A program made the position numbers and the translations under genes. A DNA stretch of 64,000 bases from Candidatus Aminicenantes bacterium (GTDB taxonomy: Bacteria; Acidobacteriota; Aminicenantia; Aminicenantales; UBA4085). Under the pieces are notes generated by a model, which searched no databases, was not told the origin of the DNA, and saw only the letters and a list, made by a program, of their open reading frames with translations. The stretch spans positions 14,556 to 78,555 of the forward strand of contig JAPKZG010000013.1 in NCBI GenBank assembly GCA_026393895.1, given 5' to 3'. Positions 4,751-27,308 of the stretch are shown piece by piece; within the stretch, counting starts at the first letter, position 1, and each line of letters starts with the position of its first letter.

Positions 4751-6520
4751 ATGCTTCGCTATTTCATCTACTGCCGAAAATCTACAGAAGCCGAAGACCG
4801 ACAGGTCCTTTCGCTTGAATCTCAAATAAACGAACTAAAACGACTCTCCGAGAGATTAAATCTCTCCGTTATTGACATCCTTATTGAATCTCGGTCAGCA
4901 AAGTCGCCAGGCCGACCGCATTTTAACGAAATGCTAAAACGAATTAGTCAGAAGAAGGCCGATGGGATTATCTGTTGGAAACTGGATCGCTTGGCAAGAA
5001 ATCCTATTGACGGAGGCCAGATCAGTTGGATGCTCCAAAAGGGGATTATTAAACATATCCAGACCTTCGATAGAGCCTACTTTCCTGAAGACAATGTCCT
5101 ATTGATGAATGTCGAGTTCGGAATGGCAAACCAATTTATCTTGGATTTGGGAAAGAACGTTAAAAGAGGGCTTAAAACGAAAGCTGAAAAGGGTTGGCTT
5201 CCAACGCTTGCGCCTCTTGGTTATTTAAATGAAAAAACAAGGGAAAAAGGAAAAAAAGAAATTCTTAAAGATCCCGAAAGATTTTCTCTAATAAAAAGGA
5301 TGTGGGACATGATGCTCACAGGAAATTACACCCCGCCAAAGATCGCTTATATAGCAAATAACGACTGGGGATACAAAACTCGGCAAGGAAAGCCATTGGT
5401 AAAAAGCACCATCTACCGGCTCTTTTCCAATCCTTTTTATTCGGGCTGGTTTGAATACCCGAAAGGAAGTGGCAACTGGTTAAAGGGAAGCCACGAACCG
5501 ATGATTACTCAAAAGGAATACGATAAAGTTCAAATACTTCTGGGTAAAAATGGCAAGCCTAGACTCAAAAAACACGAATTTGCGTTTACTGGTCTTATTC
5601 GATGCGGAGAGTGCGGAGCCACGGTCACGGCAGAAGAAAAAAACCAAATCATCTGCTCGAAGTGCAAATACAAATTCTCTTTAAATAACAGATACGAATG
5701 TCCAAAGTGTGCTACTCCTATTGAGATAATGAAGAAACCCACTATCCTCAATTATGTCTATTATCATTGCACAAAGAAAATAATGCCAGATTGCTCCCAG
5801 GGATATATAGAAGTAAATGAACTCGAAAAACAGATTGATTTTTATCTATCAAACATCCATATCTCGGAAGGATTTAAAAATTGGGCTATAAATAATCTAA
5901 AAGAAGAAAACGAGAAAGAAGCTTATTCAAGAGAATCAATCTTTGCTTCTCAAAGAAAAGCTTATGACAACTGCCTTAAGAAACTCGATAATCTTTTCCA
6001 ATTGAAAATCTCTCCTGCAAATACTGATGGGAGTCTTCTATCAGACGAAGAATACGGAAAACAAAAAATCGGATTTTTAAGAGAGAAAACCCGACTTGAA
6101 GAAATTATAAATGATAAAAGCGGCGGTATCGAGAAGTGGCTCCAAAAAGGAGAAAGAACTTTCAACTTCGCACTCAATGCTCGATATTGGTTTGAAAATG
6201 GGACACTCTTGGAGAAGTTTAAGATTTTAAAAGCTCTTGGCTCGAACCTGATTTTAAAAGACAAAAAACTTCATATTGATCTTAAAATACCTTTCACGGC
6301 TATAGGAACGGTCGTGAAGGAGGTTCCTACGGCCAGGTACGGGTTCGAACCTGAAAAATCAGACCAAAATGAAGCTAAACAAAACGATCTCTACTCCAAT
6401 ATTCCCATCGTGCTCCGCGCAATGAAGAAAGTTCGAACTTGGATCATCAGAAATGCTGATGCTTATGACGTTCCTGATTTGGAAAAGCCAACCGAGGATG
6501 CGCTTCCAATCCCCTTCTGA
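4751..6520 (+). CDS. large serine recombinase (resolvase/invertase catalytic domain + recombinase domain + zinc-ribbon)
   Basis: N-terminal 'YCRKSTEAEDRQVLSLESQ' (catalytic Ser region), 'DGIICWKLDRLARN'; Cys-rich zinc ribbon 'CGECGAT...CSKC...CPKC...YYHC'; 589 aa. Confidence 0.85.
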   Translation: MLRYFIYCRKSTEAEDRQVLSLESQINELKRLSERLNLSVIDILIESRSAKSPGRPHFNEMLKRISQKKADGIICWKLDRLARNPIDGGQISWMLQKGIIKHIQTFDRAYFPEDNVLLMNVEFGMANQFILDLGKNVKRGLKTKAEKGWLPTLAPLGYLNEKTREKGKKEILKDPERFSLIKRMWDMMLTGNYTPPKIAYIANNDWGYKTRQGKPLVKSTIYRLFSNPFYSGWFEYPKGSGNWLKGSHEPMITQKEYDKVQILLGKNGKPRLKKHEFAFTGLIRCGECGATVTAEEKNQIICSKCKYKFSLNNRYECPKCATPIEIMKKPTILNYVYYHCTKKIMPDCSQGYIEVNELEKQIDFYLSNIHISEGFKNWAINNLKEENEKEAYSRESIFASQRKAYDNCLKKLDNLFQLKISPANTDGSLLSDEEYGKQKIGFLREKTRLEEIINDKSGGIEKWLQKGERTFNFALNARYWFENGTLLEKFKILKALGSNLILKDKKLHIDLKIPFTAIGTVVKEVPTARYGFEPEKSDQNEAKQNDLYSNIPIVLRAMKKVRTWIIRNADAYDVPDLEKPTEDALPIPF

Positions 6521-16500: not shown

Positions 16501-19311
16501 TTATATTTTTGTTAAGTTGTATTTATTTCTCCGATGTTCAAAAGCTACTTCACCACCATCTAATATGTCGCAAGCATGTTCACGAATGCCTTGCGCTTTC
16601 AACGTGTCTTCACATTTTTCGTCTCTTTCTTTTGTATTTTCGATGCTGCCAGTTAAATAATTAAATTGTTTGCCATCGGTGTTTTTTCTATCGCTACCAT
16701 ATCTATTAGCTACAATAATTTGCTCAGAATCGGCTTCTATAACAAGATTCGCATTATGGCTAACCATAATGAGCTGGCGTTCCCTTTTCTTCTTTTTTAA
16801 AAACGGCACTATCTCCTTAGTAATAGACCTACTATCTAAATTATCTTCCGGTTGATCAATAAAGATTGGCCAAGTATCTTCCGATTCAGCCAAAATGAGT
16901 TTTAAAAGGAATAGCGCGCGTCGTCCGGGTGTCATAGTCGTTTCCGAAAATCCTCCTATTCGATCTCCTTCCATTTCAGCATTAAATAGGATATTTTCCG
17001 TTAGCATTAATATTTCCTTTACAACTTCGTTTTTTTCATTACCAATATTTATTTTCTGTTTCCCATAATAAATTGCTTGTATAAATTTTGCTGGTTGATT
17101 TCTAGTTAATTCAATATTTAGTTCGTTCTTTTCAACAAAATCTGTTTTATCTCTCAAATTCACTTTCTTCGCAACTTTTTCTATATCATTTAGATTTAAT
17201 CCATATTCAATACCGAATCTAATATCTTTAATTATGCTTTGATTCGTAGTTTCTAAGAATTCTTTTAGCTTAATTAGAGTAGATTGCTTCTCTTTTATTT
17301 CTGCTTTGATGGACTTTTCATACTCTTCCATTTTCTTTTGATTTTTTATCTTTTTCTTTTCAGTATCATCTATATATTTTATAGTCTCTTTGTATTCAAT
17401 AAGCTTCTTTATAAGCCCTTCCAGTTCAACATTTTTTTGATATCTTTCTAATAGGTCTTTATGGTCTTCTTTATTCTTTGATATTTTTTCCTCAATATCC
17501 TTTTTCTCTTTTTCAGCAGATTTTTTGTATTCAATAACTTGTTGGTTAGCTTTTTCTATGAGCTTATCTCTAATTTCTATTAATTCTTTTTTGATCGCCT
17601 CATGTAATTTATCAGGCAAATTTTCTAGATCGGGAGTAAATTTCCAGTTTAATCCGCTAAAGTAATGAATTTCTTCTGATACGTGCGCAAGTTGAGAAAT
17701 ATCTTTTTTAATTTGTTTAATTTCTATTTCATACTCAGATATTTCAGCGCTAATATCCTGATACTGTTTTACGTCATCTCCGCTTAGCTGATATTTTCTT
17801 TTGAGGGTCTCTATCTTTGATTCGATCTCTTGTTTTTCTTTCTTAATAATTTCCTTATTCCCAATATTTCTTAAATCTTCTTCAATTGATACGATTGAAT
17901 CAGATGATCTGAGCCAGTTTTCAACTTTCTCTAAAATATGTTCATTACAATTATCTAACTGGCTTTTTGCTTGCTTGTATCTTATTTCAAATTCAGGAAA
18001 ACGTTTAAACAATACTGGCTCAATTTTCTTTTTTATTTCTTCGGAATCTTTACTTTTATTAAATAGATAATTTTGAGGTATATAAACAATCTTTCCAAGA
18101 CTTTCGTCATTAGATAAGCCATTACCCCATTCAATTGTATGATCTATCTTTATTTTGTCCCAATGATATTCTTCGCCTTCTCCTGGGCCGTCAATTAATT
18201 TTTCGACTAATTCTTTATCAATAGCGTGTGCTATATAAGCAAGTAAAGCAGACTTACCGGCTGACCTGCTTCCTATAATTGAACAAAGGTTTTTATTGAA
18301 TACAATCTCATCCGGAAAATCTTTACTATTATTAAATTTTATTTTCTTTATAACCTGGTATTCGTTCTTTTTATCAGGTTCAATAGGACCAATCCAAACA
18401 CGTTCCCCGGGTTCCGGTTCATAAATTATTTGTTTTAAACCTTCAAAAGTGGGATCTGCTTTTATCCAAGTTACATCTTTAATAATTATTTCCTTGCCAT
18501 TTTTGTCTTTTCTTAAAGCTCTTTTGCCCAAATATTTATCTAGATCATCAAAAGAATGTATATCGCTACCTGCAATGACTGGCTTTTTACCAATTGTCAA
18601 CTCGTTATCCTCAAGTCTTTTAGTATTTAGAAAGTATTCCTGGTTTTGGGTGCCTCCGAAGAATCCATCGCTGAATTTGTCAATCTCGTCACTGATACTT
18701 TCCTTTCTTTTTACACCTCGCTCCGGTCGAATACCATCAGAATTAGCAGCTGTAAAAATAAGGAAGTGATTGCGTTGTATAGCTTTTTTACCAAAAGTTT
18801 CTTCAAAAGCACTTTTGATAGCTTGCCTCGTAACTGTCGCTGATTCATAATCAAGTTGGTTTTTTAATTCCGAACATTTTATTGGCCTTTCATCCTTTCC
18901 TGTTTTGATAACTTTTAATTCGCTCAAATATTTATCTACTTTATCCAGAGTTGATGGATTAAATATTAAATGGACATTAACTTCTTCTGGTATTTTATTT
19001 ACCGATTCATTAAGTTTTAATTCGATATTTAAAAAAAATTTCTTTTTCGATTCGGGATATTTACTTTGATATTTCTCGATAAAAGTCTTATAACAGTCCG
19101 CAGAGAAATAATCAGTTATACCAAAAACCTCGACATCGGATTGTTCTATCTTATCGCAGAATACATCACAGGCGTCTTTATTATCACTAAATTTATATCC
19201 ATCATTAAGTTTTGTTCCTGGTATATGAATATGCAAATCCCACTTTCTCCATTCAGATCCTCTCGGCCAAGGAGTTATTTGCTTAAGGATATCGCTATTG
19301 TTTGTTCCCAT
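16501..19311 (-). CDS. PHP-domain phosphoesterase fused to Rad50/SbcC/RecF-like coiled-coil ABC ATPase (TrlF-like; candidate defence ATPase)
   Basis: N-term 'WDLHIHIPGT...FGITDY' PHP His motifs; Walker A 'GSRSAGKSALL'; Lys/Glu-rich coiled coil; C-term Walker B/D-loop 'IFIDQPEDNLD' and H-loop 'LIMVSHNANL'; 936 aa. Confidence 0.7.
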   Translation of the reverse strand: MGTNNSDILKQITPWPRGSEWRKWDLHIHIPGTKLNDGYKFSDNKDACDVFCDKIEQSDVEVFGITDYFSADCYKTFIEKYQSKYPESKKKFFLNIELKLNESVNKIPEEVNVHLIFNPSTLDKVDKYLSELKVIKTGKDERPIKCSELKNQLDYESATVTRQAIKSAFEETFGKKAIQRNHFLIFTAANSDGIRPERGVKRKESISDEIDKFSDGFFGGTQNQEYFLNTKRLEDNELTIGKKPVIAGSDIHSFDDLDKYLGKRALRKDKNGKEIIIKDVTWIKADPTFEGLKQIIYEPEPGERVWIGPIEPDKKNEYQVIKKIKFNNSKDFPDEIVFNKNLCSIIGSRSAGKSALLAYIAHAIDKELVEKLIDGPGEGEEYHWDKIKIDHTIEWGNGLSNDESLGKIVYIPQNYLFNKSKDSEEIKKKIEPVLFKRFPEFEIRYKQAKSQLDNCNEHILEKVENWLRSSDSIVSIEEDLRNIGNKEIIKKEKQEIESKIETLKRKYQLSGDDVKQYQDISAEISEYEIEIKQIKKDISQLAHVSEEIHYFSGLNWKFTPDLENLPDKLHEAIKKELIEIRDKLIEKANQQVIEYKKSAEKEKKDIEEKISKNKEDHKDLLERYQKNVELEGLIKKLIEYKETIKYIDDTEKKKIKNQKKMEEYEKSIKAEIKEKQSTLIKLKEFLETTNQSIIKDIRFGIEYGLNLNDIEKVAKKVNLRDKTDFVEKNELNIELTRNQPAKFIQAIYYGKQKINIGNEKNEVVKEILMLTENILFNAEMEGDRIGGFSETTMTPGRRALFLLKLILAESEDTWPIFIDQPEDNLDSRSITKEIVPFLKKKKRERQLIMVSHNANLVIEADSEQIIVANRYGSDRKNTDGKQFNYLTGSIENTKERDEKCEDTLKAQGIREHACDILDGGEVAFEHRRNKYNLTKI

Positions 19312-19521
19312 GTTTTAATATTATCCCCCTTTTATTAATTTTTCAATTTAATCCAATTAAATGAGAATATATGGAATCCCCTTACGTCTATAATAATGAG
19401 GCGCAACATTCCGCTGTCATGCGGCCACTGTCTCAGCCGGAAGGCCGAAAACAACCGGCCTCCGGCCGCCTCAATTTATAAGTCTTTCTATTTTTCTTAT
19501 TTCGTTTCTATTCTTCTATAT

Positions 19522-20376
19522 CTATCTACCAACGAATTCTATTATGCATTCTTTTGTTTTTGGCGATACCATGAAGCATGTGTACCAGACAGAAATGTCA
19601 TTGTAAAAACGGTGCTTAAACATGATATTCATCCCATTCCATTCTTCAGGATAATCAAAAAAGCACAATTCAAAAGCATAAATATCCTTTGGATATTCCC
19701 TCGGTTTTGCAGTCCATCCGAGATGCCAGTTAAGAACATTCAGTTTTGATTCGATATTTTTGTTTTGAATAAATCTTTGTGTTGCTTCTTCTCTTGTAAG
19801 TGGACCAGAAGTTGAAACATACCCTGGACTCCATACCCATGTTTTATCCCAATTAAAATATGAATCATGCTTTCCGATTATGCTCCAAATCATGGCCGCA
19901 GTTAGTTGGCGTAACCAAGCATGGATTTTCGTTTGGGGCTTAATATAGGGAAGATTAAAGTCTTTAGTTGGAGGTGGATCGACTAAAAGTTTTTGAAGTT
20001 GCACCTCATTCATAGCTTGAGAAAAATGCGGTTCAACTGCTTTAATCGCTCGTAAAACATTATCGGTAATCCTCGTGCTTTGGGGGTAATTAATTAAAAC
20101 TTGGCGTGCACCCATAATCATTGCTGTCACAATAGCTCGATCGCCTATATTCTTCTTCGTATTATGATCTTCACATGCCGGAACGGTAATGCTATTGCAT
20201 TCAAAGCATTCAAACATCATTTTTGGCGGCGCGTGCTCTCTGCTGTGACGCATTTTGTCTTGAGTAGGTCTGCCGCAATAATAACAGGGCTTTTTCCCAG
20301 AGTACTGATATAGCCTATTTTTCTGAGCCTTGTGTTTTTGTGAGTATCTTAAAACCATTTTTTTAATAAACCCCAC
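19522..20376 (-). CDS. HNH endonuclease
   Basis: 'CYYCGRP...HSREHAPPKMMFE..CFECNS...CEDHN' HNH/Zn-finger motif; 284 aa. Confidence 0.75.
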   Translation of the reverse strand: MGFIKKMVLRYSQKHKAQKNRLYQYSGKKPCYYCGRPTQDKMRHSREHAPPKMMFECFECNSITVPACEDHNTKKNIGDRAIVTAMIMGARQVLINYPQSTRITDNVLRAIKAVEPHFSQAMNEVQLQKLLVDPPPTKDFNLPYIKPQTKIHAWLRQLTAAMIWSIIGKHDSYFNWDKTWVWSPGYVSTSGPLTREEATQRFIQNKNIESKLNVLNWHLGWTAKPREYPKDIYAFELCFFDYPEEWNGMNIMFKHRFYNDISVWYTCFMVSPKTKECIIEFVGR

Positions 20377-20384
20377 CTAAATAT

Positions 20385-20418
20385 TAGAACAACTATTAGA
20401 ACAAATCAATATGTTCTT
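20385..20418. promoter_or_regulatory. LexA-box-like operator: TAGAACA direct copy plus AGAACA-N8-TGTTCT palindrome
   Basis: tatTAGAACAactatTAGAACAaatcaataTGTTCTtgaca read in sequence; GAAC-N..-GTTC is the Gram-positive-type LexA box core. Confidence 0.55.
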
Positions 20419-20444
20419 GACACAACAATTATATATGTTAAAAT
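20417..20444 (+). promoter_or_regulatory. sigma70-like promoter of LexA-like repressor operon (-35 TTGACA, 16-bp spacer, -10 TAAAAT)
   Basis: Hexamers read directly; -35 overlaps the palindrome; ATG at 20463. Confidence 0.55.
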
Positions 20445-20462: not shown

Positions 20463-21071
20463 ATGTATAAAGAACTCCATCCGATTCAAAAGAAGCTGTT
20501 AGATATTTTGAAAAACAATATCGAAGATCCCCTGACGATCCGAGAGATACAGGGCATGCTGGACGCTTCATCTACGAGCGTAGTTGCTTATCATATCGCT
20601 CAACTGGAAAAAAGAGGATTCTTGAAAAAGAATCCGCTGAATCCAAAGGATTATCACATATTGAAGGATGGGCCGGAAAAGCAAATCGTCTATCTAAACC
20701 TATACGGCCTGGCTCACTGCGGAGCTAGAGGATCGATTTTAGAGGGCGACCCTATTGACAGGATTCCTCTATCGGCCAGGCTGATTTCCTTTCCAGCAAG
20801 CGAAGCATTCATGGTGAAGGCTAAAGGCGATTCCATGGAGCCTCTAATCCATGAAGGAGATTTGATCATAGCCAGAAAATGCAATTCGGCTGAAAACGGT
20901 AGAATCGTTGTCTGCATTAACAACGGAGAGGCGCTGATAAAGAAAATTAAAAGAGAAAGCAAAAATACGATCCTCATTTCAGAAAACTCCAAACATCCTC
21001 CCTTTCTGGCCTCCAAAAAGTTCAGGATTGAAGGCGAAGTCAGAGGCATTATAACCAGCAGAGTCGTCTAA
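20463..21071 (+). CDS. LexA/CI-like repressor (winged HTH + S24 peptidase domain)
   Basis: C-terminal 'AKGDSMEP' (Ser nucleophile) and 'LIKKIKRE' (Lys) S24 motifs; 202 aa; stop overlaps vsr start (TAATG). Confidence 0.8.
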   Translation: MYKELHPIQKKLLDILKNNIEDPLTIREIQGMLDASSTSVVAYHIAQLEKRGFLKKNPLNPKDYHILKDGPEKQIVYLNLYGLAHCGARGSILEGDPIDRIPLSARLISFPASEAFMVKAKGDSMEPLIHEGDLIIARKCNSAENGRIVVCINNGEALIKKIKRESKNTILISENSKHPPFLASKKFRIEGEVRGIITSRVV

Positions 21072-21472
21072 TGGATAATCTGACAAAAGAACAGCGAACA
21101 CTTTGCATGTCTCGAATAAGAAGCAAGAACACAAAGCCTGAGCTGGTCGTCCGCAAGGTGCTTTCAAAAATAGGGATTCGATACCGCCTCCATAATTCGA
21201 AACTGCCTGGAAGGCCCGATATAACGATTTCTAAAGCCAAAACGATTATTTTCATCAACGGCTGCTTCTGGCATCAGCATAAGAACTGCAAAAAGCAAGC
21301 TTTGCCCGCGTCCAACAAAGATTACTGGGAGAAGAAACTGAAAAGAAATATTAAAAAACAGAAACAGGATGTTCGGGCTCTAAGAAAGCTCGGCTGGAAA
21401 GTCCATAAGATATGGGAATGCCAGACGGCAGACGAAACAAAATTAACTAAAAGAGTTATGCAAATACTATGA
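21071..21472 (+). CDS. vsr: very-short-patch repair endonuclease
   Basis: 'TKPELVVRKVL...GIRYRLH...LPGRPDI....IFINGCFWHQH' canonical Vsr motifs; 133 aa. Confidence 0.85.
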   Translation: MDNLTKEQRTLCMSRIRSKNTKPELVVRKVLSKIGIRYRLHNSKLPGRPDITISKAKTIIFINGCFWHQHKNCKKQALPASNKDYWEKKLKRNIKKQKQDVRALRKLGWKVHKIWECQTADETKLTKRVMQIL

Positions 21473-22593
21473 AACAGGAAATAATATTCAAATTGGCTGA
21501 GTTATTCTGCGGACCGGGCGGCCTGTCTTTTGGGGCGATGTCCGCTTTTGTCACCGATTCAAAGGGCAAAACATATAAAGTCAAGCCCGTCTGGGCAAAT
21601 GATATTGACCCTGACGCCTGCAAAACCTTTGCCCGCAATATCCACGGCGGGAATGCCAAAAGGGTTATCTGCGCTCCAATCGAATCCGTTGATTTTGATG
21701 ATATCCCTGCTTTTGACGCCTTGGCGTTTGGCTTTCCCTGCAACGATTTCAGCGTTGTCGGAGAGCAAAAAGGTTTTCACGGTAAATACGGGCCTTTGTA
21801 TACTTATGGCGCAAAAGCAATAGACCTTTGCAATCCAAAATGGTTTATTGCTGAAAACGTTGGCGGGCTGCAGAGCGCCAACAACGGATCTGCATTTTCA
21901 AAAATTCTCCATGATCTCGAACACGCGGGCAAAGGGTATCGCCTGATTGCGCATTTATACAAATTTGAGGAATACGGCGTTCCTCAAACGCGGCACAGGA
22001 TCGTGATAATTGGAATTCGGAAAGATTTAAATCTGGAATTCAAAGTCCCCGCTCCGACTACGGTCAATAAATACGTTTCCGCTAGATCGGCCATTGAAAA
22101 CCCTCCCATTCCAGCTTTTACGCCGAACCAGGAGATGACTGCTCAATCCAATCGTGTCGTTGAAAGACTTAAGCATATACCTCCGGGCGAGAATGCCTGG
22201 TTCAGTGGCCTGCCCGAGCATTTGCAGTTGAATGTGAAACAAGCTAGATTAAGCCAGATATACAAAAGGCTAGACCCAGACAAGCCGTCCTATACCATTA
22301 CAGGCAGCGGAGGGGGCGGAACTCATGGATATCATTGGAGTGAAAACAGGGCTCTTACCAATCGAGAACGGGCCAGAATTCAGACCTTTCCCGATGATTT
22401 TGTATTTGAAGGCTCCAAAGAATCCGTCAGGAAGCAAATCGGAATGGCCGTCCCGCCGCAGGGTGCAAGGGTGATCGTTGAAGCGGTTCTGAAAACGTTT
22501 GCCCGCATTCCCTACAAATGGGTTTCACCCAAGCTAATCAACAGTGATTCGGCTAACAGCGGCCAGAAGTTACTTTTTGATGCGCGGGCTTAG
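21469..22593 (+). CDS. dcm: DNA (cytosine-5)-methyltransferase
   Basis: Motif I 'FCGPGGLSFG', motif IV 'GFPCNDFS', motif VI 'ENVGGL'; 374 aa; ATGA overlap with vsr. Confidence 0.85.
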   Translation: MKQEIIFKLAELFCGPGGLSFGAMSAFVTDSKGKTYKVKPVWANDIDPDACKTFARNIHGGNAKRVICAPIESVDFDDIPAFDALAFGFPCNDFSVVGEQKGFHGKYGPLYTYGAKAIDLCNPKWFIAENVGGLQSANNGSAFSKILHDLEHAGKGYRLIAHLYKFEEYGVPQTRHRIVIIGIRKDLNLEFKVPAPTTVNKYVSARSAIENPPIPAFTPNQEMTAQSNRVVERLKHIPPGENAWFSGLPEHLQLNVKQARLSQIYKRLDPDKPSYTITGSGGGGTHGYHWSENRALTNRERARIQTFPDDFVFEGSKESVRKQIGMAVPPQGARVIVEAVLKTFARIPYKWVSPKLINSDSANSGQKLLFDARA

Positions 22594-23429
22594 AGCAGTC
22601 CTAAAAGCTCCTGCCAGCTTTCCTTGTTTTTATGCAATTGTCCTGATTTCTTAACGAAGCGCACCCCGTCAAATTCCTGGCCTGGAATGCTGTTCACTTT
22701 CTCCAATTCATTGATACGGCACCAGCCCGCGATTTCGCAGAACATATTGGAGAAATCAGGCATTTTATCCTTGTAGCTTGGAAAGTGCTGTTCGCCTTTG
22801 ATGACTTGTATTACACGATCTTTTGTCAACCTCAGCAAATGATCGTCGGGGATGTCAGGGCGGCAAAAGATATAAAACTCAGACCTTCGCTCTTTTATAT
22901 TTATTTCGTTCTCTCCCAAAACAAGATACGCGCTCTTCGGCTTTGATGATTTAATCCCTATTCCTATCTTCGGATCGCGCTTTTCTCCTTTTTCAATGAC
23001 ACCGATAATATCTTGAGGAACGATATTATCATGGATTCCAAAATCCAATTCGACGCTGACATCAAATTCTTTTTCGAAGAATTTTTTAACTGCGACTTCC
23101 GCCAGCTGGCCTTTCACCCAGTTCGTTATTTTTTGTCCGAATTCTCTCTGCCTTGCCGTCCCCCAATCAGATAAGACGTACCCTCTGAAATGCTGAGCCA
23201 GGGCGAAATCCAAACAAAGGGAGTAATCCTCGAACGTCAGCTCTACAGTCCTCCACTTAAAAGCTACGGCCCATTCTGCTAGCTCGTCCTTAATGAAATA
23301 ATACCGGCCCCGGCCGCTTTTCCTATCCATGCACTTGAATTCATCTGCATTTTGAAAATAGTTGGCGAAAGTCTTCTCGTCCAATGACAAATATTCGGCA
23401 GCTTCTTTTTTGGACAAGGGTTTGTTCAT
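22590..23429 (-). CDS. putative type II restriction endonuclease (cognate of adjacent m5C MTase)
   Basis: Convergent with MTase, immediately downstream of C-protein gene; possible PD-(D/E)xK 'VELDFGIHD...IGIGIKSSK'; assignment by context. Confidence 0.4.
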   Translation of the reverse strand: MNKPLSKKEAAEYLSLDEKTFANYFQNADEFKCMDRKSGRGRYYFIKDELAEWAVAFKWRTVELTFEDYSLCLDFALAQHFRGYVLSDWGTARQREFGQKITNWVKGQLAEVAVKKFFEKEFDVSVELDFGIHDNIVPQDIIGVIEKGEKRDPKIGIGIKSSKPKSAYLVLGENEINIKERRSEFYIFCRPDIPDDHLLRLTKDRVIQVIKGEQHFPSYKDKMPDFSNMFCEIAGWCRINELEKVNSIPGQEFDGVRFVKKSGQLHKNKESWQELLGLL

Positions 23430-23433
23430 ATAA

Positions 23434-23658
23434 TTACTTGTTCAGAAAATAATTAAGATTTCTTTTATAAATATCCGCAAATTTCTTCAGTTGAATTACA
23501 TCTACCCGTCTTTGTCCAGATTCGATTTTTGAGATGTATGACTGCGATTTTTTCAACAGCTTAGCTACGGCCGCTTGATCAAGGCCAGCCTCAAGCCGAG
23601 CCTTCTTCAGCCTGTCCACCAAGGAGCTGTGTTCTTTTGAATAAATGGTATTTGCCAT
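23434..23658 (-). CDS. controller (C) protein-like XRE HTH regulator of R-M system
   Basis: 74 aa, 'LKKARLEAGLDQAAVAKLLKKSQSYISKIESGQR' XRE HTH; directly upstream of putative REase on same strand. Confidence 0.65.
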   Translation of the reverse strand: MANTIYSKEHSSLVDRLKKARLEAGLDQAAVAKLLKKSQSYISKIESGQRRVDVIQLKKFADIYKRNLNYFLNK

Positions 23659-23753
23659 AAATTATAGCTTATGTTATAAGTATATATTCCATTATGTAAT
23701 ATGCCAAATTGGAATACGAACTTTCTTCATTTCCGCTTGGCGGATTTTTATAA

Positions 23754-24653
23754 TTAGTCGCCAAGCCAGTTCTGCCGCCTTAGCATCTTTTCAAACTTCA
23801 ATCCCCACCATTTATATTTGCCCCAAGGCCTATAATGCCTATGGACAAAGCTCGTAACGTTTCGGCACCTAAAATTTTTCTTTATATAGGAGTTGACCTC
23901 AGAATCCACTGGAATCCGATCATAATATCCGGCAAGGATTAATAGATGGGCAGCGGCATATGGCCCGAAGCCTCGTAATCGAACTGCCATTTCGTAGGCG
24001 ACATCATAGGGCAGCGTGGCGTTTTCCAAGCTGGCTGGACCGGAATCGTTAGAAAATGACCGGGCTAGCTGTTTTAACGCTACCGCTCGATAACCTATTG
24101 GAATTCTGCGGCGCAGATCGTCAAGACGCTCATCAGCCAGCGCAGAAGCCAAAGGAAAAGGAAATCTTCCGCTGGGAGCAGGAGCAGAATAGTCAGCAGA
24201 ACAAATCTTCTCGCACATCTTTTGCGTTAGCGCCCAGGAGCAGTTTGTCGTAAATAAAGTTTTTGCGGCATCCTCCCATAGTGTTACGCCGCGCAGAAGA
24301 CGGCCTGCCCCCTTTCGTACCAGTCCTGGATATGGATCACCTATTTTTAAGGCGATCTTGAAAAGCCCTGTTGTTTCCTCTTTCAAACCGAGAATCCGAG
24401 CCAGCACAGCATCAATTCGTTTTAAAGAATTTGATTCGATCTTCTTTTTAGAGCAGATAACTCCTGAGATAGAGCGCTCGTCCTGCTGAATCGAAACATC
24501 GACGGCTTGGCTGTCAATAAGAAGAGCAAATTCCAAGCGGCTGTGCTTTTTATCCCAGGAGAACGGAGCAAGATTAACCCAGCCGTGCGTATGACAGGTT
24601 ACAAAAAGATCGTACCATTTGGGGCAGGGATATTTTCTATATGCTTTAAACAC
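23754..24653 (-). CDS. HhH-GPD superfamily DNA glycosylase (AlkA/Ogg-like)
   Basis: 'LRGFGPYAAAHLLILAGYYDRIPVDSEV' helix-hairpin-helix + Pro/Asp catalytic motif; 299 aa. Confidence 0.5.
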   Translation of the reverse strand: MFKAYRKYPCPKWYDLFVTCHTHGWVNLAPFSWDKKHSRLEFALLIDSQAVDVSIQQDERSISGVICSKKKIESNSLKRIDAVLARILGLKEETTGLFKIALKIGDPYPGLVRKGAGRLLRGVTLWEDAAKTLFTTNCSWALTQKMCEKICSADYSAPAPSGRFPFPLASALADERLDDLRRRIPIGYRAVALKQLARSFSNDSGPASLENATLPYDVAYEMAVRLRGFGPYAAAHLLILAGYYDRIPVDSEVNSYIKKNFRCRNVTSFVHRHYRPWGKYKWWGLKFEKMLRRQNWLGD

Positions 24654-24784
24654 AATTCTTTCGTCTGGATAGCTTTCTTAATTTATATTTTACAAATTGA
24701 AATTTCAATAGCAACCGCTTTTCTCAATCCTCCTCCCCGCATTGATTATTGTGATAAAATATCTCAAGTGCAAGAGTGAAGTAG

Positions 24785-26287
24785 ATGGAAAAGAATAAGC
24801 CCGTCGGCATTTGGATTCGGGTCTCGACCGAAGACCAAGCCAAAGGCGAAAGCCCGGAACATCACGAGAAGCGCGCCCGATACTATGCCGAATCCAAGGG
24901 CTGGCAAATAAAAGAGATATATCACTTAGAGGCGGTCAGCGGGAAGTCGGTCATGGGTCACCCGGAGACCCAGAAAATGCTCGATCATATCAAGTCCGGC
25001 CATATCACCGGACTCATTTTTTCCAAACTGGCCCGACTCGCCCGAAATACCAGAGAATTGCTGGAATTTGCAGACATTTTCAGAAAATATAACGCCGACC
25101 TGATCTCTCTCCAAGAAGCTATCGATACCTCTTCCCCGGCTGGACGGCTTTTCTATACCATGATTGCAGCCATGGCCCAATGGGAGCGGGAAGAAATATC
25201 CGATCGGGTCGCGGCCTCCGTCCCTATTCGGGCAAAACTCGGAAAACCGACAGGCGGACAAGCGGCTTATGGCTACCAATGGGTAAACAAACAGCTTGTG
25301 CCTGACCCTAAAGAAGCGCCGATACGGAAACTGATCTATGAGATGTTTCTTGAACACCAGAGGAAAAAAACCATAGCACGGCTCCTGAACGAGGCCGGAT
25401 ACCGAACCAGAAACGGCTCGAAATTCACGGATACGACCGTAGGAAGACTTTTAAGAGATACCACGGCCAAAGGGTTTCGCCGGGCGAATTGGACCAAAGG
25501 ACCGCCCGATAAAGGCCAAAAAAGGATAATCAAAGCCCAATCCGAATGGATAAATGTTCCGGTCGAGCCCATAATCTCTGAAGAACTCTGGAATCGGTGC
25601 AACGCGATCCTCGACGACCAGGAGAAAAGAGGCAAGAGACCAACTCGGAAAACCGTTCAGCTGTTTGCCGGATACACCTTCTGCGAGTGCGGAGACAAGA
25701 TGTACGTTCCCTCGAACTCTCCAAAATACGTCTGTTACAAATGCCGGAATAAAATCGGAACAACTGATTTAGAAGAAATCTTCCACCAACAGCTTAAAAC
25801 GTTTTTTTTCTCTTCGGGTGAGATCACTAAATATCTCAGCCAGGCTGACCAAGTGATAAAAGAAAAAGAGAACCTACTAAAGACAAATGGAGAAGAAAAG
25901 CGGAAAACGGAACAGGATATGGATAAAATATATCGGGCTTATACCAATGATGAGATCTCTATGGACAGCTTTGGAAAGCATTACCGGCCACTCGAAGAAA
26001 GGCTTAAACAGATAGACAATCAGCTTCCCGAGATTCAGGGAGAAATCGACTTCCTTAAAATCCAGTATTTATCCTCTGATCAGATATTCAATGAAGCCAA
26101 AGACCTTTATTCCCGCTGGCCTCAGCTTACTTCTGAAGAAAAAAGAAAAATCATTGAAAACATTACAGAAAATATAAAGATCGGAAAAGAAGACGTTACG
26201 ATCAACCTCACTTATCTTCCCTCTTCTTTCGAATTGATGGCAACTGAGCAACGCAATCACAGGGATTCATCGCCGCAACGAACATGA
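24785..26287 (+). CDS. large serine recombinase / integrase of the island
   Basis: '[21 protein letters not shown]' catalytic Ser region, '[13 protein letters not shown]', recombinase domain, zinc ribbon 'CECGDKMY...CYKC'; last ~8 codons and stop lie in GC-rich host sequence. Confidence 0.85.
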
Positions 26288-27308
26288 ACGCGGCCGGAAA
26301 TGTGGCGCTGTGGGCTGACCGGACCACCGTCACGGTCCCGTCCTCCAACGGTTGACGCAGATCCTCTAAAACCTTGCGTCGGAATTCGGGTAATTCGTCG
26401 AGAAACAAAACCCCAAGATGGGCCAAACTGACCTCGCCGGGTCGGGGCACCGCGCCCCCGCCGATCAATCCGGCATCGGTGACCGTATGATGCGGCGCGC
26501 GAAACGGCCGGCGGCCGACCGCTCCCTTCCCTTTCAAATACCCGGCTGCGCTGTAAACCTGGGTCACCTGGATGATTTCCTCGAACGTCATGTCGGGAAG
26601 GATCGAGGGCAGGCGCCGGGCGATCATGGTTTTGCCCGAACCCGGTGGGCCGATAAGGAGAACGTTGTGACCGCCGGCCGCGGCTACTTCCAGGGCCCGT
26701 TTGACGTGATGCTGGCCCTTGACTTCGCGGAAATCCGGCCCCGGAGGCGGTTCCTCGACCAACTCGGAAAGCGCGTACCGACTCGGTGGAAGCCGGCCCG
26801 GGTCGTGGAGGAAGGAGACGACCTGGGGCAGGTCGGACACCCCGAACACGTCGAGGCCGTCGAGCAAAGCCGCCTCTTTTTCATTGTCCTTGGGGACGAC
26901 GATGCCCTTGAATTTCCGGGTCCTGGCCAGGATGGCCGCCGAAAGGACGCCCTTGACCGGTTTGATCCTTCCGTCCAGGGCCAACTCTCCTAAAAAACAA
27001 TAATCCTGGAGCGGCGGAACCGGGACGATGTTCAGGAAGGCGAGATGCCCGAGGGCGATAGCCAGGTCGAACGACGGACCTTCCTTCCGGCGGTCGGCCG
27101 GGGCGAGGTTGATCGTAACCTTGCGGGGCTGAAAATCATAGCCGCAATTCTTGAGCGCCCCCTTGACCCGCTCCTTGCTTTCCCGGACCGAGGCGTCGGG
27201 AAGCCCGACGATGATGAAATCGGGCAGGCCGTTGCCGATGTCGACTTCGACCTCGACGATGTAGGCCTCGATGCCCTGGAGGGCGGAACTGGACGTTTTT
27301 ATGAGCAT
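26208..27308 (-). pseudogene. comM: comM/yifB Mg-chelatase-like AAA+ ATPase, 3'-truncated by island insertion (frame reads into island after 'AAMNPCDC')
   Basis: '[13 protein letters not shown]' Walker A, '[10 protein letters not shown]' Walker B, 'AAMNPC' sensor region then divergence; C-terminal ~140 aa missing. Confidence 0.8.

Follow-up and report, generated by a model that had tools for sequence, protein, structure and literature searches.

Control of type II restriction–modification (R-M) systems is known to be exerted by C-proteins, by self-repression of the methyltransferase, by antisense RNA, and by promoter methylation. The C5-methyltransferases M.SsoII, M.EcoRII, and M.MspI, for example, regulate themselves through an N-terminal helix–turn–helix (HTH) region. 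Restriction alleviation is, to our knowledge, so far known solely for type I systems. A helix–hairpin–helix (HhH) DNA glycosylase, MIG (Mig.Mth), has been described as linked to a 5-methylcytosine (5mC) R-M system, and it has a tyrosine at the lysine position (PMC9945173). Here we analyze a 64-kb stretch of Candidatus Aminicenantes DNA (the window, by which we mean the whole stretch), in which six adjacent genes encode a LexA-like S24 repressor, the mismatch endonuclease Vsr, a C5-cytosine methyltransferase (M), a restriction endonuclease (R), a controller protein (C), and an HhH glycosylase. The analysis indicates that these genes probably represent a horizontally mobile type II 5mC R-M cassette with two control circuits, next to which lies a separately transcribed glycosylase of the repair type. 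The parts are familiar and their wiring is unusual, the most interesting feature being a LexA-type repressor, free or fused, that would regulate the methyltransferase.

All six open reading frames (ORFs) are intact, with the coordinates and strands listed in Table 1. The six-gene order recurs with other flanks at three further loci, L001, L003, and L008 (L-numbers denote compared genome loci and P-numbers compared proteins; V stands for Vsr, and a prime marks members of a second, type B cassette discussed below), and the arrangement is therefore not a chance juxtaposition. The start codon of vsr overlaps the stop codon of the repressor gene (TAATG, 21069-21073), and the vsr stop codon in turn overlaps the start of dcm (ATGA, 21469-21472), which links Vsr to the C5-methyltransferase. 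These overlaps, read straight from the sequence, confirm the translational coupling of vsr and the methyltransferase behind an S24 repressor that had been noted in a preliminary description of this DNA. The Vsr motifs RPD and GCFWHQH are present. M and R are convergent, with tails overlapping by 4 bp.

R and M constitute the core of a type II R-M system. In the translation of M, motifs I (FCGPGG), IV (PCNDFS), VI (ENV), and VIII (QTRHR) are recognized. The protein encoded opposite to it had been put down as a putative restriction endonuclease, and the assignment is borne out by homology to nucleases: the fold is of the PD-(D/E)xK type, the catalytic residues E111, D140, K160, and E175 are invariant, and the sequence matches the PADLOC model of type II endonucleases with 4.7e-16. 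Sequence searches with R returned no match in the PDB and none among plasmids, and all of its homologues (617/617) are annotated as "hypothetical". A scan with one genome per species yielded 62 loci with relatives of R, mostly from Patescibacteria (the candidate phyla radiation, CPR), plus a few from archaea and other phyla. In each of the 55 loci with enough sequence, a C5-methyltransferase adjoins R (55/55), nearly always in convergent orientation, and the two genes thus form an obligate pair. An attempt to derive the specificity of M from methyltransferases in the PDB was abandoned, because the core motifs align with those of M.HaeIII and M.HhaI but the target-recognition region does not. 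It can also be mentioned that the same methyltransferase family contains Vsr::methyltransferase fusions (P0287 and P0294) and an HTH_17::methyltransferase fusion (P0313).

The gene that heads the vsr-dcm operon encodes a winged-HTH domain followed by an S24 peptidase domain. Against the LexA equivalog model TIGR00498 the protein scores 91.7 bits, below the cut-off of 110.95, and we therefore regard it as LexA-like rather than as the chromosomal LexA of the host. Its Cys-Gly site, its serine (in GDSM), and its lysine (in IKK) align with A84-G85, S119, and K156 of E. coli LexA. All three features, with the cleavage site in the form (A/C)-G, are invariant in 27 sequences that are 24-97% identical, fusions included. 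Since the self-cleavage machinery is conserved in this way, a link to DNA damage (the SOS response) is favoured.

A putative operator, composed of direct repeats and a palindrome, precedes the repressor gene. The pattern TAGAAC..TAGAAC..GTTCT is kept in 10 loci despite drifting spacers, the repressors at these loci being 56-97% identical. The palindrome occurs once in the window, upstream of its own operon, and repeated boxes of the kind expected for a regulon are not found in the window. The -35 element of the promoter abuts and overlaps the right arm of the operator, and the promoter itself, matching 11 of 12 consensus positions, is the best of the region. In a number of Patescibacteria loci (L005, L009, L010, L011, L015, L019, L022, L046, L055, and L059), another motif, TGTGGATAA(C), is repeatedly encountered a short distance upstream of the genes for regulators or fusions; it is the reverse complement of the DnaA-box-like TTATCCACA.

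The association of this repressor with the methyltransferase extends well beyond the window. In 22 of 48 related loci, M or vsr-M is immediately preceded by a co-oriented S24 gene, and in four of them (L022, L046, L055, and L059) the LexA-like ORF is fused to the methyltransferase without a break in frame. When one of these fusion ORFs was used to search the database, it returned at least 25 clusters (P0241-P0265) of 562-578 aa, which contain PF01726, PF00717, and PF00145 and are annotated merely as cytosine methyltransferases. From the fusion to M and the repeated proximity of the two genes it follows that the repressor is part of the R-M system and not of the island in which the cassette resides. 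The proposal of a methyltransferase under an SOS-type repressor is thereby placed on firmer ground than when it was made. Targeted literature searches gave no description of S24/LexA control of a type II methyltransferase, and a 2025 review of R-M biology contains no mention of LexA or S24.

The second circuit concerns R. The gene for C is co-oriented with that of R, 4 nt upstream of the R start, and is present in 20 of 56 related loci. The view of its 74-aa product as a C-protein is strengthened by conserved tandem palindromic C-boxes, which lie over the -35 element upstream of 23658, are kept in about 30 loci, and occur only once in the window. A variant clade with C proteins of only 54-58% identity shows concerted changes in the two arms of the C-box, to TATCCCA...TGGGATA. 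Judged by sequence, this layout is the anatomy of the classical C-protein switch, and C is predicted to bind the tandem C-boxes and thereby to control R. We consider the R-M assignment and both regulatory anatomies well supported, and a layered control by the C-protein and the LexA-like repressor, as suggested previously, is plausible. The two operons may also be connected through their transcripts: the terminator-like hairpin between C and the glycosylase could end the lexA-like-vsr-dcm transcripts after an antisense run through R and C, a hint that transcription running on from the vsr-dcm operon could interfere with C-R expression.

The target of the system is probably GCWGC, methylated at C5. 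In 671 kb around systems of the type found in the window (type A, L005-L066), 352 GCWGC sites are observed versus 951 expected, corresponding to an observed/expected ratio (O/E) of 0.37 and z of -19.4. The O/E of control loci is 1.00, and GCSGC is not depleted around the type A systems. The avoidance is seen in Patescibacteria hosts (O/E 0.34) as well as in non-CPR hosts (O/E 0.47), and several 16.8-kb loci hold 0-1 sites versus about 30 expected. Among four-base and six-base palindromes around the type A systems, avoidance is nowhere near that of GCWGC. The island part of the window (1-26200) has 19 sites versus 39.8 expected. The depletion leads us to predict an ApeKI/TseI-like specificity with C5 methylation, a prediction that we regard as strong but indirect. 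M.ApeKI is known to place 5mC at the second C of GCWGC (PMC8557920).

On the basis of these features, the following mechanism can be envisaged. In a naive cell the repressor would be absent and the strong promoter would fire, such that the repressor, Vsr, and M are co-produced, after which the repressor would damp the operon. The expression of R would be delayed until C builds up on the C-boxes. If an under-methylated chromosome is then cut by R, or suffers other damage, RecA filaments would form and induce self-cleavage of the repressor, and the levels of M and Vsr would rise. Such SOS feedback via a self-cleaving repressor, which we put forward as a hypothesis, would couple damage to protection and be the type II counterpart of restriction alleviation.

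The glycosylase shares 100% of its residues with a protein of a Candidatus Aminicenantes metagenome-assembled genome. It gives no Pfam match at E ≤ 0.01, HhH-GPD included. It matches TIGR00588 (Ogg) with 3.6e-11 and 42.7 bits, far under the cut-off of 397.85. The structural model, with a pLDDT of 94, consists of an N-terminal TBP-like β domain and a two-lobed HhH helical domain, and the structures closest to it are those of AlkA enzymes. The HhH hairpin contains GFG at positions 228-230, and D250 aligns with the catalytic D268 of OGG1. The position of the OGG1 lyase residue Lys249 is taken by Tyr232, which also aligns with W218 of AlkA. Both D250 and Y232 are invariant across 103 homologues, and the replacement of the lyase lysine by an invariant tyrosine leads us to predict a monofunctional enzyme. 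The same replacement, together with the score far below the family cut-off, led to the rejection of a bona fide Ogg. A degraded pseudogene, a concern raised in the preliminary description, is likewise rejected: the ORF is intact, the model is of high confidence, and the dN/dS versus five relatives is 0.13-0.20, indicating a working gene, one that evolves faster than its neighbours. Within the clade of the glycosylase a glutamate is fixed two residues past the catalytic aspartate, where the rest of the family has valine. A TTGAAAT...TATA(A/G)ATTAAG block is found upstream of every clade member, including those of the non-island loci L074 and L075, and the genes start with GTG or TTG. Excision of alkylated bases is predicted from the structural ranking and from the aromatic residue at the W218 position. 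The AlkA enzymes of A. fulgidus and D. radiodurans excise 1-methyladenine (1meA) and 3-methylcytosine (3meC) (PMC4437013).

A role for this enzyme can be proposed on these grounds. It would be an AlkA-like monofunctional glycosylase, recruited from a mostly housekeeping family and most likely accessory to the 5mC system. Vsr would handle the T:G mispairs arising from 5mC deamination, and the glycosylase would handle alkyl lesions made by the methyltransferase, such as 3meC, or U/T:G mispairs. AlkB requires O2 and Aminicenantes are anaerobes, so the O2-dependent AlkB route could not operate in such a host. Our preference for the hypothesis of an accessory that repairs collateral damage alongside Vsr stems from the fact that both types of cassette found next to the glycosylase contain a C5-methyltransferase and Vsr, that AlkA enzymes come nearest in structure, the one from A. 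fulgidus being able to excise 3meC and 1meA, and that the AlkB-type damage caused by C5-methyltransferases would have to be repaired by other means in an anaerobe. That such methyltransferases cause alkylation-type damage needing AlkB has been reported for E. coli (bioRxiv 10.64898/2026.01.24.701492).

The genomic context of the glycosylase is informative in this regard. In the clade with at least 57% identity, every sufficiently long locus has a C-R-M-Vsr cassette directly downstream of the glycosylase, and two unrelated cassettes occupy this position, namely type A and type B. The latter comprises a bona fide controller (PADLOC 4.7e-26), an orphan 281-aa protein, another Vsr, and a C5-methyltransferase only 24-25% identical to that of type A. 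The glycosylase-C'-R'-M'-V' unit forms one homology block, present both in the island (L067, L071, and L072) and in L074/L075, where it has 71-73% nucleotide identity to L067/L071 and where neither a recombinase nor the island backbone is nearby. More distant members of the family (≤55% identity) have 114 neighbours, which are mostly housekeeping or metabolic genes and occasionally R-M genes, suggesting a repair-type ancestry. As a core R-M component the glycosylase was rejected, being found in 1 of 44 loci. The earlier idea that it is wired into the R-M operon also had to be given up, in view of its own conserved promoter, of the C-box promoter that sits between it and C, and of its absence from the other loci. 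Within one small clade, it is nevertheless invariably found next to and upstream of a C-R-M-Vsr cassette, of which there are two unrelated kinds.

The link between the glycosylase and the R-M system is the weakest step of the reading favoured here, and a number of points weigh against that reading. The glycosylase is absent from 43 of the 44 related R-M loci, and its clade, of about 16 clusters, is small and probably derives from one lineage, such that the association may reflect one capture and one cassette swap. Homology between islands ends right at the stop codon of the gene and begins again at a conserved structured element past the cassette, a pattern expected of a gene that does no more than border a hotspot of cassette exchange. 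In the comparison of the window with L001, the R-M genes have a dS of 0.07-0.16 and the glycosylase one of 1.16, showing that they have not always been inherited together. Vsr already handles T:G repair, and the alignment with E. coli AlkA is weak beyond the HhH motif (hhalign probability 57%). With regard to the target, the host part of the window shows no shortage of GCWGC (55 sites observed versus 56 expected) and thus lends no local support, a result that fits a recent acquisition of the system; moreover, the avoidance derives mainly from CPR genomes, and the controls include no system-free CPR genome. Finally, RecA-dependent cleavage, operator binding, and the cleavage and methylation of GCWGC are all steps that we infer. 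Given the absence from most loci, the homology break, the discordant history, the separate conserved promoter, and the housekeeping setting of the wider family, it is a real possibility that the glycosylase is a mere neighbour with no functional tie, either as part of the conserved end of the island by the serine recombinase or as the flank of the exchange hotspot. Such an explanation is at odds with the contiguous glycosylase and type B block of L074/L075, which has no recombinase or island backbone nearby, and with the fact that both partner cassettes are 5mC systems with Vsr and have the glycosylase, without exception, immediately upstream of C in the same orientation. We have also considered an antiviral, modification-dependent "restriction glycosylase" of the Dag kind, which would excise hypermodified bases (e.g., 7-deazaguanines) from phage DNA that escapes R. 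HhH-fold glycosylases that defend against phages with modified guanines provide a precedent (bioRxiv 10.1101/2025.10.29.685425), and the cargo region shared with the R-M system and a Ppl/TrlF-like ATPase, the faster evolution, the clade-specific and fully conserved V-to-E change, and the location of distant members next to type IIG and type III R-M systems (L141 and L143) would all be in line with it. However, we consider this role unlikely, because metabolic or housekeeping genes predominate around members of the wider family, about 30 residues invariant in both clades argue for an unchanged chemistry, the dN/dS gives no sign of diversifying selection overall, and the protein has no PADLOC match to defence models.

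The repressor, too, can be interpreted in other ways. Autoregulation alone would account for the overlap of operator and promoter and for the fusions to M, and the sub-threshold TIGR00498 score, which sets the protein apart from host LexA, is compatible with a plain autorepressor that uses the S24 domain for dimerization only, has no link to damage, and limits M and Vsr in the manner of the HTH of the M.SsoII type. We find this somewhat improbable, since the invariance of the cleavage site, serine, and lysine across such divergent sequences would be unexpected if self-cleavage were unused. S24 repressors also commonly control prophages and integrative elements, and the element described below has recombinases and a TraG-like coupling protein, so that the protein could be the master repressor of the whole element, analogous to ImmR or CI, with the adjacency to vsr-dcm being incidental. 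This is very unlikely considering that the S24 gene accompanies the R-M pair in many unrelated genomes without the element, that 25 clusters contain it as a fusion to M, and that in the window the operator palindrome is found solely upstream of its own operon.

Taking the damage-responsive repressor and the repair accessory together, we tentatively propose, as a possibility only, that a widespread and mostly CPR family of R-M systems keeps M under a RecA-sensitive LexA-type repressor, and that an anaerobic lineage has added Vsr and an AlkA-like enzyme as a lesion kit replacing AlkB. If this is true, breaks, including those from self-inflicted restriction, would automatically raise methylation, and type II systems would have their first described circuit of damage-sensing "restriction alleviation". 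A self-cleaving LexA-type repressor reserved for, or fused to, the methyltransferase would link the restriction-modification balance to DNA damage. The analysis also offers a probable function, and GCWGC as target, for a family of more than 600 "hypothetical" proteins common in Patescibacteria. It further raises the testable idea that 5mC systems can come with lesion-repair accessories of their own, which bears on the cost of cytosine methylation.

The six genes are cargo at one end of an element inserted in yifB by a large serine recombinase. The window is composed of a low-GC part, from position 1 to about 26,200 (GC 0.28-0.47), and a high-GC remainder (about 0.56-0.65). The 3' end of the recombinase gene overlaps the truncated yifB, and the GC jumps there from about 0.47 to 0.56-0.60. 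The same yifB-recombinase-glycosylase junction is present in another genome (L067, 5347-7702), an indication that integration into yifB is site-specific. The remaining half of this gene is missing from the window, the element continuing past its left end. The low-GC part also encodes a TraG/TrwB-like coupling protein, a DUF932 protein, and a Cas4-like nuclease, and the integrative element is probably mobilisable.

Some further observations were made on the element and its relatives. A second large serine recombinase (589 aa, 4751-6520, + strand), with a zinc-ribbon domain, lies inside the low-GC element. A 936-aa TrlF-family PHP+AAA ATPase (16501-19311, - strand; NCBIfam 8e-145), which also weakly matches the anti-phage protein Ppl, is variable defence-like cargo, as L001, L003, and L008 have no copy at that position. 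Beyond the cassette of either type lies a conserved GC-rich structured element, which marks the far limit of the R-M slot open to exchange, with copies in L001 (4491-4575), L008 (11546-11627), L071 (4771-4857), and L072 (5277-5364) and with genes downstream of it that differ from locus to locus. Its predicted fold resembles a three-way junction (-44 kcal/mol, z -4.5), and searches of Rfam and of viral contigs gave no match; an RNA and a boundary for recombination are both conceivable. Between this element and the R-M cassette, a Cys/His-rich ORF of 284 aa (19522-20376, - strand), with only a weak PHD-finger match, is not in L001, which is otherwise collinear. In L008 (6700-11040), on a 1.4-Mb contig of an Aminicenantes metagenome-assembled genome, the same six-gene cassette is apparently decaying: only piecemeal matches across frames are obtained for the genes of the glycosylase and of the LexA-like protein, and the endonuclease is called as a 227-aa fragment (P0042).

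Table 1. Genes and predicted sites of the R-M cassette and its surroundings (window coordinates unless a locus is named).
Feature	Position	Strand	Basis or details
LexA-like repressor, winged-HTH + S24 peptidase	20463..21071	+	PF01726 1.3e-6, 28.6 bits (cut-off 23.7); PF00717 3.7e-22, 78.7 bits
Putative repressor operator	20382..20417	+	direct TATTAGAAC repeats at 20382-20390 and 20394-20402, plus palindrome
Operator palindrome AGAACAAAT/ATATGTTCT	20398-20417	+	repeat search
Sigma-70-like promoter of lexA-like-vsr-dcm	20417..20444	+	-35 TTGACA, 16-nt spacer, TG-extended -10 TAAAAT
LexA-like::methyltransferase ORFs	L022 8835-10676; L046 2525-4240; L055 8834-10549; L059 8842-10548		
Vsr T:G mismatch endonuclease (very short patch)	21071..21472	+	PF03852 3.9e-30; TIGR00632 134 bits (cut-off 97.85)
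C5-cytosine methyltransferase (M, dcm)	21469..22593	+	PF00145 4.3e-72; PADLOC MTase_II 3.2e-116
Type II endonuclease (R), 279 aa	22590..23429	-	N-terminal HTH_17 (excisionase/MerR-type HTH) and C-terminal PD-(D/E)xK domain
C protein, 74-aa XRE/HTH_3	23434..23658	-	PF01381 3.9e-14; PADLOC Control_protein 6e-6
C-box OL TATTCCAATTTGGCATA	23700-23716	-	17-bp palindrome; contains -35
C-box OR TATTACATAATGGAATA	23685-23701	-	17-bp palindrome abutting OL
C/R promoter	23679..23716	-	-35 TTGGCA (23707-23702), -10 TATACT (23684-23679)
AlkA/OGG1-fold HhH DNA glycosylase, 299 aa, GTG start	23754..24653	-	fold by structure modelling
Glycosylase's own promoter	24680..24714	-	TTGAAA, ~17 nt, TA(A/T)AAT
Terminator-like hairpin and T-run	23732..23752	+	consensus scan only
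Large serine recombinase, 500 aa	24785..26287	+	PF00239 and PF07508; at the element's end
Truncated yifB/comM, insertion target	26208..27308	-	TIGR00368 model positions 3-350 of 499
GC-rich structured element, ~85 nt	19392..19476	-	far boundary of exchangeable R-M slot

Several known systems resemble parts of this locus. The glycosylase is closest in setting to Mig.Mth of Methanothermobacter, which is likewise a monofunctional enzyme of the HhH superfamily with a tyrosine for the lyase lysine and is linked to a 5mC R-M system. The AlkA enzymes of E. coli and A. fulgidus have merely 13-17% identity to the present protein. Dag1 and Dag2 are also HhH-superfamily proteins found in mobile or defence contexts; Dag1, however, is described as having a catalytic lysine (K118), and the wider family of the present glycosylase, unlike Dag1/Dag2, looks like housekeeping repair. 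As for the target, the predicted GCWGC site and C5 methylation are those of ApeKI/TseI, the likeness coming from site avoidance, and M.ApeKI is far larger (56 kDa) than M here.

On the side of regulation, the controller and R follow the PvuII/AhdI/Esp1396I type: the gene for the small HTH_3 protein stands immediately ahead of that for R and is co-transcribed with it, tandem C-boxes cover the -35 element, and the expression of R would thus be delayed. The C-box TATTCCA-N3-TGGCATA is specific to the present family, and M, rather than being constitutive, C-regulated, or self-regulated, is placed in a second operon behind the S24 repressor. That operon shares with E. coli dcm-vsr the overlapping, translationally coupled genes and a Vsr that repairs T:G from 5mC deamination, but here vsr precedes M, a repressor stands in front, and the R-M system is complete. 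The repressor has in common with LexA, lambda CI, and UmuD the winged-HTH and S24 architecture, the (A/C)-G site, the Ser-Lys dyad, and a palindromic operator. Its operator, AGAAC-N10-GTTCT plus extra direct repeats, differs from theirs, and, unlike LexA, it scores below the LexA cut-off and appears dedicated to one R-M operon, with no SOS regulon. The LexA-like::M fusions mirror the architecture of M.SsoII, M.EcoRII, and M.MspI, in which a DNA-binding module on the methyltransferase represses the promoter of M; what sets the present family apart is that this module is a complete LexA-type repressor with an S24 domain, and hence with a potential input from DNA damage.

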